The notes: generated by a model not told the origin, from the sequence alone. DNA of 64,000 nucleotides from Actinomycetota bacterium (GCA_043810615.1 JBDROA010000092.1:3235-67234), one strand, 5' to 3'; numbered from the stretch's first letter, positions 60,455-64,000 are shown. A program made the numbers and translations.

Positions 60455-60542
60455 TCCCGGGTTCCCCTCCTGATGGCTTCGCCCGCACGACCACCATCAA
60501 TCGACGACCCGCGCCTCCAAAACGAGCGCGCTAAGCTGCACG

Positions 60543-61346
60543 GTGATGCAGGAGATGCATGAAGCGGCAGGAAAGGCACCCCCTCGACCCGCCCTGCTGA
60601 CCACCCGGGACGTGCAGCAGATCATCAGGGTGGACAAGTCCACCATCTACCGCATGGCCGAGACCGGCCGCATCCCCGCCGTCAAGGTGGGCCGCCAGTG
60701 GCGCTTCCCCGCGGATCGCCTGCAGGAGTGGCTGCAGAGCGGTCCGGCAGCGGTGGGCTCGCCGGGCCAAGAGAACCCTCCGGCGAACGGGTCCCGCCGG
60801 CTGGCCCCCGGAGCACTCCACGCCGTGGCGGACTACCTCGCCGCCGCCACCGGGACCATGGTCGTGGTCACCGACATCACCGGCAGGCCCCTCGCCGACC
60901 CCGCCAACCCCTGCGGGTTGTTCCGGGCGGTGCACGCCTACCCGGGGGTCATGGAGCGCTGCGTGCTCGGCTGGCAGGAACTGGCCGGTGAGCTGGAGTT
61001 CGAACCGCGGTGGCGGCCCACCCCGCTGGGTTTCCTCTGCGCCCGCAGCCTCTTCCGTGTGGGCGATCGCCTGGAGGGCATGGTCCTGGCGGGTGGCGTC
61101 GCTCCGGCTGGCTGGCCTCCGCCCGCGGGTGAAATCGAGCGCCTGGCGGCGAACCTCGGTGTGCCGGCAGCCGTCATCAGCTCCCACCTGGGTGAGGTCT
61201 ACCCCCTCGGGCCGGAGGAGCTAGCGCGCGTCCTGTGCCTGTTGCCCCCTACCGCCGTGCTCGTCTCCCGTCTCGTCGAAGCAGGTGCCGTCGGCCGGGT
61301 CGTGAGCCCTGCCGCGATCGACTCATCGCAAAGGAGCGAAACGTGA
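60543..61346 (+). CDS. Transcriptional regulator: excisionase/MerR-type HTH (HTH_17) fused to a ~190-aa Cys-containing sensory domain
   Basis: N-terminus LLTTRDVQQIIRVDKSTIYRMAETGRIPAVKVGRQWRFPADRLQEWL. The C-terminal domain has 4 Cys (PCGLF, ERCVLGW, FLCARS, VLCLL). Its stop overlaps the sqr GTG (GTGA). Confidence 0.6.
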   Translation: MMQEMHEAAGKAPPRPALLTTRDVQQIIRVDKSTIYRMAETGRIPAVKVGRQWRFPADRLQEWLQSGPAAVGSPGQENPPANGSRRLAPGALHAVADYLAAATGTMVVVTDITGRPLADPANPCGLFRAVHAYPGVMERCVLGWQELAGELEFEPRWRPTPLGFLCARSLFRVGDRLEGMVLAGGVAPAGWPPPAGEIERLAANLGVPAAVISSHLGEVYPLGPEELARVLCLLPPTAVLVSRLVEAGAVGRVVSPAAIDSSQRSET

Positions 61347-62572
61347 AGCGTCTCTTGGTTCTCGGGGCCGGCACCGCCGGGACCATGGTGGTGAACAAAC
61401 TGCGGCCCCGCCTGGACCCCGACGAGTGGAAGCTGACCATCGTCGATCAGGACGCCTGCCACCACTACCAGCCGGGGTACCTCTTCATCCCGTTCGGCAT
61501 CTACCGCGCCCAGGACGTTCAGAGGCCGCGACGCGACTTCATCCCCGCCGGCGTCGACATGGTCATGGCCCCCATCGAAGCCATCGACCCCGCTCGGCAA
61601 CGGGTGACCCTGGCCGGGGGGCGTCATCTGGACTACGACTACCTGGTCATCGCCACCGGAACGCACCCCACCCTCTCCCAGACCCCAGGGATCGAGGGGG
61701 AGGCGTTGGGGGACACCATCCACCACTACTACGGGCTCGAGGGAGCCGTGGCCCTCTACGAGCGCCTCAAGACCTGGGAGGGGGGCCGCCTGGTGGTCAA
61801 CATCATGGAGACCCCCTTCAAGTGCCCCGTCGCCCCTCTCGAGTTCACCTTCCTGGCCGACTGGTGGTTCCACGAGCGCGGCATCCGAGACCGGGTGGAA
61901 CTGGTCTTCGCCACCCCCATGGGGGAGGTCTTCACCAAGCCCATCGCCGCCCGCCACCTGTCCCACCTCCTTCACGAGAAGAGGGTGGCGATCGAGACGG
62001 ACTTCTACGTGGAGCGCGTCGACGCCGACCGCAACACCATGGTCGCCTACGACGGCCGGGAGCTTCCCTACGACCTGCTGGTCACCGTCCCGGTGAACAT
62101 GGGAGCAAAGGTGATAGCGCACTCCGGGTTGGGCGACGAATTGAACCACGTGCCGGTGGACAAGGGCACCTTCCTCTCTCCAGAGCATCGCAACATCTTC
62201 GCCATCGGTGATGCCGCCGCCCTTCCCACTTCAAAGGCGGGAGCGGTGGCTCACTTCTCGGTCGAGACCTTCGCCGAGAACTTCCCCCGATACGCCGAGG
62301 GCCTCGAGATGCTGGAGCGCTTCGACGGCCACGCTAACTGCTTCATCGAGTCCGGCTTCGGGAAAGGCCTGCTCATCGACTTCAACTACGACACCGAGCC
62401 GCTGCCCGGCAAGTACCCGCTCCCCGGCATCGGCCCGTTCTCCCTGCTCCAGGAGACCGTCACCAACCACTGGGGCAAGATGATGTTCCGCTGGGTCTAC
62501 TGGAACCTGCTGCTCCGCGGCCGGGAGATCCCCCTCCCCACCGAGATGAGCATGTATGGGAAGGAACGGTGA
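61343..62572 (+). CDS. sqr: Sulfide:quinone oxidoreductase-like flavoprotein
   Basis: VLGAGTAGTMVV FAD motif. Cys in FKCPVAPLEF (~pos 165) and HANCFIESG (~pos 350) fit the positions of SQR redox cysteines; 409 aa. Confidence 0.75.
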   Translation: MKRLLVLGAGTAGTMVVNKLRPRLDPDEWKLTIVDQDACHHYQPGYLFIPFGIYRAQDVQRPRRDFIPAGVDMVMAPIEAIDPARQRVTLAGGRHLDYDYLVIATGTHPTLSQTPGIEGEALGDTIHHYYGLEGAVALYERLKTWEGGRLVVNIMETPFKCPVAPLEFTFLADWWFHERGIRDRVELVFATPMGEVFTKPIAARHLSHLLHEKRVAIETDFYVERVDADRNTMVAYDGRELPYDLLVTVPVNMGAKVIAHSGLGDELNHVPVDKGTFLSPEHRNIFAIGDAAALPTSKAGAVAHFSVETFAENFPRYAEGLEMLERFDGHANCFIESGFGKGLLIDFNYDTEPLPGKYPLPGIGPFSLLQETVTNHWGKMMFRWVYWNLLLRGREIPLPTEMSMYGKER

Positions 62573-62576
62573 GGCC

Positions 62577-63287
62577 ATGACCACGGCAGTAGCCCAAGAC
62601 CGCCTCGCTTCTCTCGAGGCCAAACTCGACGCGGTCTCCCACCAGGTCGACTACGTCGTCGTCGCGCTGCGCCAGCAGGAAACCCGGCGCGGCATGTGGG
62701 ACGAACTGCGCCACGACCTGGCCCCCGTCACCGCAGACGTCATGGAGCGAGTCAGCCGCGAACTGGACGAGGTGCGCGGCTTCATCGAGCCGGATGACCT
62801 ACTTCGCGTCACCAAGCGCCTGTTGCGCGACCTGCCCTGCCTGGAGGCCCTCCTCGACCAGGTGGAAAGCGTGTCGGCCCTCGGCGCCGACCTGGCACCG
62901 CTGAGCCGGGAGATGCTCCTGGCGGCGATGGCCGCTCTCGCCGAACTGGAGCACCGGGGCTATTTCGCTTTCGCCCGCGGGGCCAAGGAAGTCATGGACC
63001 GCTTAGTCGTCTCCCTCGGCCCTGAGGACCTGCGGGCTCTCGCCGCGAGCGCCCCCGACGCCGTGCAGGCTCTCAAGGAACTCGCTCATCCCGAGGTCCT
63101 CGGCCTCCTGCCCGCCCTGGCGCAAGGCCTGCGGGCGACTCCGGCAGAGACCCCCGGCTTGCTCCGGCTGCTGTGGCGGCTGCACCGCCCGGCGGCCCGG
63201 CGCGGCCTGGCCCGAGCTCTCGAGGCCCTGGAGGCCCTGGGCGGCCCCCCGGCGCCGACCGTCGAGCCCGACCCCACGATCCGCTGA
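62577..63287 (+). CDS. DUF1641-like helical protein
   Basis: ATG 62577 with GAAGGAACGGTGAGG RBS. All-helical, 236 aa. Assignment to the SQR-associated DUF1641 family is from memory and context. Confidence 0.45.
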   Translation: MTTAVAQDRLASLEAKLDAVSHQVDYVVVALRQQETRRGMWDELRHDLAPVTADVMERVSRELDEVRGFIEPDDLLRVTKRLLRDLPCLEALLDQVESVSALGADLAPLSREMLLAAMAALAELEHRGYFAFARGAKEVMDRLVVSLGPEDLRALAASAPDAVQALKELAHPEVLGLLPALAQGLRATPAETPGLLRLLWRLHRPAARRGLARALEALEALGGPPAPTVEPDPTIR

Positions 63288-63315
63288 ACCGAACCTTGAA
63301 GGGAGCAGAACCCCT

Positions 63316-63633
63316 ATGCCCATCGCCACCATCGCCGGCCGTGCCGTCCACCTCGACGAGGAAGGCTTCATGACCGACCCCGCCGAGTGGACCGAGGAGA
63401 TCGCCGCCTTCCTGGCGAGCCAGATCGGCATCGACCCCCTCACCGACGGGCACTGGAGCGTGATCCGCTTCCTGCGCGCCGACTTCGCCGCGCAGGGAGA
63501 GACCGCCACCCTCCGCCGGGTGTCCACCGTGGCCGGGGTGGCCACCAAGGACCTCTACGCCCTCTTCCCTGGCAAACCCGCCCGCAAGATGGCCTACGTG
63601 GCCGGGCTCCCCAAGCCCACGGGCTGCGTGTAA
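63316..63633 (+). CDS. TusE/DsrC/DsvC-family sulfur relay protein
   Basis: 105 aa ending ...YVAGLPKPTGCV (the conserved C-terminal arm Cys of DsrC/TusE); RBS GAAGGGAG. Confidence 0.8.
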   Translation: MPIATIAGRAVHLDEEGFMTDPAEWTEEIAAFLASQIGIDPLTDGHWSVIRFLRADFAAQGETATLRRVSTVAGVATKDLYALFPGKPARKMAYVAGLPKPTGCV

Positions 63634-63663
63634 TCGACGGGTCGCGACCAAGGAGACCGCCAC

Positions 63664-64000
63664 ATGACCACCAGTGAGGGCTTCATCGCCCCCAAGTTCG
63701 ACAACGATGCCGGCCGCAAGCTGGTCATCATCTGTTCGAAGGGCACCCTCGACATGGCCTACCCCGGGCTCATCATGGGCAACGGGGCCCTGCAGGAGGG
63801 CATCGAGGTGCACATGTTCTACACCTTCTGGGGCCTGGACATCATCCGGAAGAAGACGGTGGACAAGCTCAGCCTCACCCCGGTGGGCAACACGGCAATG
63901 CGCATCGGAAACACGTCGCTGGCCATGCCGCAGACCCTGGGTGCCCTGCCCGGCATGAGCAGCATGGCCAGCTGGATGATGCGGAGCAAGATCAAGGGCC
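63664..64000 (+). CDS. DsrE/DsrF-like family protein (3' end outside window)
   Basis: KLVIICSKGTLDMAYPGLIMGNGALQEGIEVHMFYTFWGLD with the conserved Cys; the ORF runs off the window end. Confidence 0.7.
   Translation, partial: MTTSEGFIAPKFDNDAGRKLVIICSKGTLDMAYPGLIMGNGALQEGIEVHMFYTFWGLDIIRKKTVDKLSLTPVGNTAMRIGNTSLAMPQTLGALPGMSSMASWMMRSKIKG

Follow-up and report, generated by a model that had tools for sequence, protein, structure and literature searches.

Gene content and synteny of the cassette

The last 3.5 kb of a 64-kb stretch of DNA from an Actinomycetota bacterium (in the following the window, in which coordinates count from the first letter) carry, at the 3′ end and all on the + strand, five genes that probably constitute a self-contained and horizontally spread cassette for cytoplasmic sulfide oxidation and protein-bound capture of the product. 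These genes encode a regulator composed of an HTH_17 domain and a PocR-like sensor (60546..61346, with the start at 60543, 60546 or 60555), a putative type III sulfide:quinone reductase (SQR) in its cysteine form (61343..62572; 409 amino acids, aa), a divergent, all-helical protein assigned to the DUF1641 superfamily (62577..63287; 236 aa), a single-cysteine carrier of the DsrC/TusE family (63316..63633; 105 aa) and a DsrE2-like carrier (63664..64000), of which the first 112 of ~174 codons are present, the gene being cut by the window end. They are preceded by a candidate promoter/operator (60532..60559, + strand) consisting of a −10-like TAAGCT and three TGCA boxes. An initial annotation had already read this region as a sulfide-oxidation and sulfur-relay cluster, and this reading is backed by homology and synteny, a relay being the natural interpretation of the gene set.

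The genes are tightly packed. The GTG start of the SQR gene overlaps the TGA stop of the regulator gene in a GTGA at 61343-61346, the DUF1641-like gene starts 4 nt past the SQR stop, and the 28-nt and 30-nt spacers before the DsrC/TusE-like and the DsrE2-like gene carry a GGGAG ribosome-binding site and an AAGGAG Shine-Dalgarno-like motif, respectively. This confirms the five co-directional genes with overlaps or spacers of 0-30 bp and the GTGA coupling described initially. The G+C content drops from ~72-73% to 67.5-70% over the cassette (60001-64000), the window as a whole having 72%. An Rfam scan of 58000-64000 gave no match, and a consensus promoter/terminator scan and an inverted-repeat search around the regulator start yielded nothing useful.

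The flavoprotein matches the NCBIfam type III SQR model NF049943 with 606.2 bits (cutoff 525) over model positions 1-406 of 406. Its nearest solved structure is human SQOR, to which it aligns over the full length (E 3e-38), and further solved relatives are the SQRs of Aquifex and Acidithiobacillus and flavocytochrome c sulfide dehydrogenase. Both catalytic cysteines of human SQOR have counterparts in C161 and C333, which are invariant in 84/84 homologues; in type III SQRs the catalytic pair is called Cys159/Cys339 (PMC13047784). The protein has no signal peptide, its FAD-binding GxGxxG begins at residue 8 and a second GxGxxG dinucleotide motif was not found in the sequence, suggesting that it faces the cytoplasm and is not an NADH dehydrogenase. 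In the PDB search, NDH-2 structures matched the N-terminal 118 residues only (E ~5e-9). Taken together, these data support the assignment as type III SQR and not as NDH-2, the grouping that the initial annotation had named as speaking against its proposal of an SQR with cysteines at the two redox positions. The enzyme would be expected to reduce quinone in dependence of sulfide, which is the substrate oxidised by those type III SQRs that have been characterised (PMC10205796 and its references 53, 54).

A 2026 review describes HxxU as the selenocysteine motif of a selenoprotein subtype of type III SQR (PMC13188914). The window SQR reads HANC333, the cysteine counterpart of this motif, suggesting that it is the cysteine form and not the selenoprotein subtype, and no in-frame TGA was found in the window SQR or in the 84 homologues. 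A selenocysteine form considered for one locus (L140) was rejected, its stop being a true stop. Selenocysteine recoding was likewise rejected for two metagenome loci (L104:4771-6010 and L150:4753-5990), in which the SQR genes are frameshifted after ~277 codons; these frameshifts are due to assembly error or mark pseudogenes.

The fourth protein matches PF04358 (DsrC) with 107.5 bits and passes TIGR03342 (73.4 bits, cutoff 53.5). It does not pass the E. coli-type TusE equivalog NF008562 (52.8 bits, cutoff 191), and it resembles the DsrCs of archaea and bacteria more than it does the TusE of E. coli. The C-terminus reads GLPKPTGCV, as noticed initially, and its penultimate Cys104 is invariant (80/80). 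DsrC sensu stricto possesses a penultimate CysA and a CysB 11 residues upstream. In an alignment to solved DsrCs the CysB position of the window carrier is occupied by alanine, CysB is absent in 80/80 homologues and the family has no second conserved cysteine. The carrier is therefore of the TusE type with a single cysteine and not a DsrC proper, i.e., the family given by the initial annotation stands and the label DsrC needs to be qualified.

The fifth protein matches PF13686 (DrsE_2) with 74.8 bits for the fragment in the window. Its full-length orthologues have 174 aa and reach 110-122 bits against the DsrE2 equivalog NF047629, for which the cutoff is 210, so that by these scores the protein is DsrE2-like and not the DsrE2 equivalog. 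The best solved match is 2qs7 (E 1.7e-14), which is cited as a DsrE2B-type homotrimer (PMC11094781). The start at 63664 and the run-off at the window end had been recognised correctly. As regards the conserved cysteine claimed for this protein, Cys24, which lies inside the window, is kept in 60/73 orthologues, and the invariant DsrE-type Cys135 (73/73) falls past base 64000. Loss of the conserved cysteines from the small proteins had been named as a weak point of the relay; both carriers keep theirs.

The third protein, for which the initial annotation had rightly guessed a likeness to DUF1641, could be placed at the family level. PF07849 (DUF1641) is matched by 42/48 positional orthologues from other loci (best E 7e-12). 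Moreover, a profile of the family finds ForE1/YjgD (8rqz) with E 6e-8 and YjlC/Ncp (9snk, 9pxk) with E 2e-4 to 3.5e-4, Ncp being the NDH-2 membrane coupling protein. These profile matches suggest that the protein belongs with the ForE/Ncp/HucM superfamily, an assignment that holds for the family only. The window copy gave no sequence match in the PDB, the family alignment contains no conserved cysteine, and the AlphaFold2 (AF2) monomer model of the window copy is a poor helical bundle (predicted local distance difference test, pLDDT, 59) unfit for fold search. The DUF1641 gene directly follows the SQR gene in 67/85 genome loci (tblastn) and in the majority of metagenome loci with sufficient DNA. 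Tetrameric tubes of DUF1641 proteins serve as scaffolds for the Huc hydrogenase, the formate dehydrogenase ForC and B. subtilis Ndh, fixing these enzymes to the membrane and delivering menaquinone (PMC13524794, PMC8808070). By analogy, the protein may serve the SQR as a quinone conduit or couple it to the membrane.

A further observation concerns the N-terminal half of the DUF1641-like protein (62577-62960), which shows a weak sub-threshold likeness to the amphipathic helices of apolipoprotein A-I/E (Pfam E 0.006). The signal occurs in 14/16 close homologues, with several PDB matches to ApoA-I at E 0.05-0.1. It may be compositional only; a lipid-wrapping helix would fit a quinone/lipid conduit.

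To follow the cassette in other genomes, GTDB was scanned at one genome per species. At least 594 relatives of the SQR were found, of which the 80 best were fetched together with 5 metagenome loci. All 79 loci with enough downstream DNA contain the SQR gene, then the DsrC-like gene and then the DsrE2-like gene on the same strand and in that order, an order also kept in the metagenome loci collected with the regulator wherever the DNA reaches far enough. The cassette occurs in Actinomycetota, Chloroflexota, Verrucomicrobiota, KSB1, Calditrichota and Bacteroidota, including the cultured Kineosporia sp. A_224, Opitutaceae bacterium MBA3-11 and Thermoflexus hugenholtzii. The SQRs of these loci are 58-75% identical to that of the window (58-66% across phyla), which together with the lower G+C content of the cassette points to horizontal spread.

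The end of the cassette was inferred from syntenic relatives and not from the window DNA. These relatives, with SQRs 83-85% identical, share with the window the upstream genes for glycine dehydrogenase subunits, a ROK kinase, an adenosine deaminase and an acetyltransferase. In them the operon ends with the 174-aa DsrE2-like gene, which is followed on the opposite strand by a convergent 65-aa open reading frame (ORF) and an LPG_synthase_TM gene. Furthermore, when the ORFs within 3.5 kb of the cassette were clustered for 68 loci, no extra neighbour family recurred in more than 7 of them. By this evidence the cassette is a closed, self-contained module ending at the DsrE2-like gene, and the expectation that it continues beyond the window with TusA, a persulfide dioxygenase or Hdr-like genes was not borne out.

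On its upstream side the regulator gene adjoins a gene (59351-60454, +) for a 367-aa Ala/Arg-rich coiled-coil protein without Pfam match. The last ~70 residues of its product resemble a small C-terminal domain on models of NuoE, L21, S2 and the phasin PhaH. A shorter counterpart lies in the same place in close relatives and is not found in distant loci.

The regulator and a candidate operator

The regulator matches HTH_17 (59.5 bits) and PocR (33.7 bits, cutoff 23.9) in Pfam, which bears out the HTH_17-sensor architecture proposed for it, and has a below-cutoff match to the NCBIfam model NF033787. In the AF2 model (pLDDT 87.7) the N-terminal winged helix-turn-helix (wHTH) superposes in Foldseek on BldC (6ama, 6amk) with a root-mean-square deviation of 1.5-2.0 Å, a probability of 1.0 and 27-29% identity, and also on the RdfS excisionase. 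The sensor of ~160 aa resembles the GAF/PAS-like ligand domains of IclR, CodY and DosT in the same model.

The regulator family is dedicated to the cassette. Of 69 metagenome homologues that are 35-86% identical and followed by no less than 400 bp of DNA, 64 lie directly upstream of an SQR gene, and at least 2 of the other 5 are paralogues that match canonical PocR more strongly. A search with the sensor domain of 1.84 billion representative proteins returned 132 clusters only, nearly all of ~250 aa and of the same architecture. Two HTH_17-PocR paralogues (L148:3989-8466 and L163:871-1638; PocR 67-76 bits) were observed beside genes for CBS-domain proteins, family III CoA-transferase and acyl-CoA dehydrogenase, suggesting that this architecture controls other pathways as well. 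A literature search, carried out in open-access sources, found no report linking a PocR domain to sulfide.

Upstream of the regulator gene, TAAGCT (60532-60537) is followed by TGCAcggtgaTGCAggagaTGCA (60537-60559), in which TGCA occurs three times, at distances of 10 and 9 nt. This array of boxes overlaps the potential starts of the regulator gene (GTG 60543, ATG 60546 and ATG 60555). The triple is unique in the window, with 0.00 expected, and TAnnnT with the TGCA block is the sole conserved block upstream of the regulator in close relatives, the DNA being otherwise unalignable. An ~8-fold enrichment of TGCA was observed in a set of 120 non-redundant regions upstream of the regulator gene: there are 3.36 occurrences per 120 nt, whereas shuffled sequences have 0.41, more distal upstream DNA 0.35 and coding sequence 0.45. 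Of ~290 pairs of neighbouring boxes, 139 are spaced by exactly 9 nt, with smaller peaks at 10, 18-19 and 28, and 79/120 regions contain a pair at 9 or 10 nt, compared to 0.39 expected in shuffles. The chains typically have 3 and up to 6 boxes, and their flanks are directional with a unit of approximately rAGATGCAg. Loci without adjacent regulator have no such TGCA repeats upstream of the SQR gene.

BldC binds 9-bp direct repeats head-to-tail with one protomer per repeat (PMC5859096), so that the BldC-like fold of the regulator and the 9-nt spacing of the boxes agree. By this analogy the array would be the operator of the regulator, and repression of the box-covered promoter would be the simplest reading of its position.

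The start region shows a further peculiarity. The annotated N-termini of several regulators (MQEMH, MHSMH, MHKMH, MHRMHQMQ) are translated ATGCA repeats, as observed at 60543-60560 in the window and in L001, L003, L008, L009, L086-L090, L110 and L116. N-terminal extensions of the MQEMH type may therefore partly be operator DNA read as protein, a possible annotation problem.

Two other motifs were observed at cassette loci. In low-G+C loci of the Chloroflexota type, ATTTCACAA occurs ~25-35 nt upstream of the regulator start (e.g., L115, L120, L125, L163, L024 and L069), often after TGCAT(n4-5)TGCAT and a TATAAT-like box. Actinomycete loci without HTH_17-PocR regulator have a G+C-rich palindrome, TACCC(n4)GGGTA, upstream of the SQR gene, often within TATACCCnnGGGGGTATA. 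It lies ~91-101 nt before the SQR start at L036:3285, L047:5897, L065:5907 and L073:5903, and it is also present at L154:198, L074:2187 and L085:5784. The palindrome resembles operators of the CsoR/CstR family. On this likeness, the same cassette would be under the control of another, known persulfide-sensor family in the regulator-less actinomycete genomes; a CsoR-like gene was not seen next to the palindrome-bearing cassettes.

Proposed mechanism and rival explanations

A mechanism that would account for the gene set starts with the SQR, which lacks a signal peptide and would oxidise H2S at Cys161/Cys333-FAD in the cytoplasm, passing the electrons to menaquinone. The DUF1641 protein would scaffold the SQR or conduct quinone, as ForE, Ncp and HucM do for formate dehydrogenase, NDH-2 and Huc, respectively, a role suggested by family membership and adjacency. 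The sulfane sulfur produced by the SQR would pass as cysteine persulfide to Cys135 of the DsrE2-like protein and to the penultimate cysteine of the TusE-type carrier. Such a capture parallels the DsrEFH to DsrC and the TusBCD to TusE transfer; the sink would be encoded elsewhere or be non-enzymatic. The BldC-like wHTH would occupy, head-to-tail, the three consecutive 9-bp TGCA repeats that cover the promoter and start of its own gene, and the PocR-like sensor would respond to a sulfide-related signal.

Several observations weigh against this mechanism or parts of it. The window copy of the DUF1641-like protein is too divergent to match the Pfam DUF1641 model even at E<1. In ~11 loci the DUF1641 gene is missing and the carrier gene stands directly after the SQR gene. 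Moreover, the C-terminal amphipathic helix of the SQR is equally conserved with and without DUF1641 partner, which led to the rejection of the idea that DUF1641-partnered SQRs have lost their C-terminal membrane helix as in Ncp-coupled Ndh. The SQR can therefore probably reach the membrane unaided, and the DUF1641 protein is optional. For the carriers, DsrE2 proteins have no established function (PMC11094781), and no linked sink (dioxygenase, rhodanese or Hdr) was found among the 68 loci. For the regulator, the sensor has three conserved cysteines (Cys124, Cys140 and Cys166), of which C140 and C166 persist in the paralogues that do not stand beside SQR and only C124 is partly SQR-specific. The presence of C140/C166 in paralogues beside CBS-domain, CoA-transferase and acyl-CoA dehydrogenase genes makes them a family feature and no specific evidence of persulfide sensing, and the three cysteines were rejected as an SQR-specific mark of such sensing. 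Finally, as the boxes overlap the start codons, their conservation in close relatives could partly be due to coding. In most loci, however, the boxes lie 20-60 nt upstream of an ATG just before the HTH.

The missing sink also bears on the purpose of the cassette. Instead of serving detoxification or energy conservation, the SQR might make persulfide for assimilation or biosynthesis, with the carriers delivering it to a thio-cofactor or to tRNA thiolation. The absence of an oxidising sink would fit, and so would a TusE-type carrier with a single cysteine and without CysB, like the carrier of tRNA thiolation. However, no MnmA, TusBCD or MoaD/ThiS-type genes recur beside the cassette in the 68 loci, the carrier misses the TusE equivalog by far and is closer to DsrCs than to E. 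coli TusE, and the most similar operon in the literature reacts to sulfide in its capacity as a toxin or source of energy (PMC10205796), making this explanation rather unlikely.

Similarly, the enzyme might have a different substrate or run in reverse, e.g., be a quinol-dependent reductase of polysulfide or protein persulfide, or act on selenide, the carriers then presenting the substrate. That the cassette is found in lineages with anaerobes (KSB1, Calditrichota, Anaerolineae), that the NCBIfam model matched is that of the selenoprotein subtype and that there is a weak match to a SelD-linked oxidoreductase would be in line with this. It is nevertheless given a low probability: neither selD nor selA is linked to the cassette in the 68 loci, the window SQR and its 84 homologues are free of in-frame TGA, the breaks in L104 and L150 are frameshifts, and the type III SQRs characterised to date oxidise sulfide (PMC10205796).

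An NDH-2-type NADH dehydrogenase with an Ncp-like DUF1641 partner, the sulfur carriers being mere passengers, would agree with DUF1641 partners being known for NDH-2 (PMC13524794) and with NDH-2 structures appearing among the weak PDB matches. These matches cover only the N-terminal part of the protein compared to the full-length SQR alignment, both SQR cysteines are invariant, a second GxGxxG is missing, the type III SQR model is passed and the carriers are linked in every locus, so that this explanation is already effectively refuted. Finally, the cassette might be just the first part of a longer system that goes on past base 64000 with TusA, a persulfide dioxygenase or Hdr-like genes, as the truncation of the last gene by the window end would allow. 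This is highly improbable given the convergent 65-aa ORF and the LPG_synthase_TM gene that follow the DsrE2-like gene in syntenic relatives and the lack of a recurrent downstream family across the 68 loci.

Within the preferred reading, in which sulfide is oxidised in the cytoplasm and the product captured on proteins, three more specific proposals can be combined. The DUF1641 protein would be an Ncp/ForE-like quinone conduit for the SQR, which would be the first sulfur enzyme and the fourth enzyme class served in this way; the persulfide would go directly to the pair of DsrE2-like and TusE-type proteins and not to a small thiol; and the regulator would represent an unrecognised class of sulfide-responsive regulators, in which a BldC-like wHTH joined to a PocR-like sensor binds head-to-tail to 9-bp TGCA repeats. 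That all of this holds jointly is a tentative proposal, and in our estimate it is rather doubtful.

If the DUF1641 protein works like Ncp or ForE, conduit scaffolds extend to sulfide respiration and well outside the Bacillota. The pairing of Ndh with Ncp was found only in Bacillota, in a survey limited to NDH-2 neighbours (PMC13524794). Moreover, no class of SQR has been studied less than type III, the function of DsrE2 is unassigned, and the module ties both to one carrier and one regulator. With cultured strains carrying the module, it offers a simple system to ask which molecule takes the sulfane sulfur of SQR in bacteria devoid of glutathione. Furthermore, the regulator and the repeat array are a testable candidate for a new family of sulfide-sensing transcription factors.

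Comparison with known systems

The closest described system is the type III sqr-tusA-dsrE2 operon MFUM_v2_0219-0221 of Methylacidiphilum fumariolicum SolV, which is induced 1.7-fold by sulfide (PMC10205796). In both, a type III SQR gene stands directly before the gene of a small carrier for sulfur and that of a DsrE2-type protein. The carrier is TusA in SolV, whereas it belongs to the DsrC/TusE family in all loci fetched here, and the cassette has in addition a DUF1641 gene after the SQR gene and an HTH_17-PocR regulator gene in front; these differences were drawn from the description of the SolV operon and not from a sequence comparison. The statement of the initial annotation that the gene combination is not a described operon has to be divided accordingly: the core was known from SolV, and for the variant with DUF1641 protein, TusE-type carrier and regulator no report was found in the open-access search.

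The two carriers recall the relays from DsrEFH to DsrC and from TusBCD to TusE (PMC3397948, PMC11094781), in which a DsrE-family protein with an invariant active-type cysteine likewise stands beside a DsrC/TusE-family protein, and the penultimate cysteine of the partner carrier is invariant here, too. In contrast to the heterohexamers DsrEFH and TusBCD, the cassette encodes a single DsrE2-like protein, for which 2qs7 is the nearest solved structure. Furthermore, neither DsrAB nor MnmA is linked to it, and the carrier cannot form the DsrC trisulfide as it lacks CysB.

With ForE, Ncp and HucM the third protein shares that the DUF1641 gene adjoins, and is probably translationally coupled to, the gene of a peripheral quinone-reducing enzyme. 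Here this partner is an SQR, the protein is longer by an extra N-terminal helical region of ~100 aa and it is dispensable in the ~11 loci mentioned, while complex and quinone binding are predicted from genes and profiles. The open-access literature, searched with terms in which those containing a colon such as 'sulfide:quinone' remained unmatched, gave no report of a link between DUF1641 and SQR, and an SQR is named as a DUF1641 partner neither in PMC13524794 nor in PMC8808070.

The regulator has the wHTH fold in common with BldC, and its candidate sites share the BldC geometry of direct repeats in tandem with a unit of 9 bp. BldC consists of 68 residues without sensor and recognises the repeat AATTxxxxC, whereas the regulator of the cassette carries a PocR-like sensor in addition to the wHTH and the core of the repeat is TGCA. 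Similarly, CstR, SqrR/BigR and FisR, persulfide-responsive regulators of sqr operons, resemble the regulator in that its gene heads or adjoins an SQR operon and in that it is expected to respond to sulfane sulfur. The fold sets them apart, being here a BldC-like wHTH with a PocR-like sensor, and the Pfam and NCBIfam matches of the regulator include none to the families expected of CstR, SqrR/BigR and FisR. The new elements of the cassette compared to all these systems are the pairing of DUF1641 with SQR and a BldC-PocR regulator accompanied by repeats of 9 bp.

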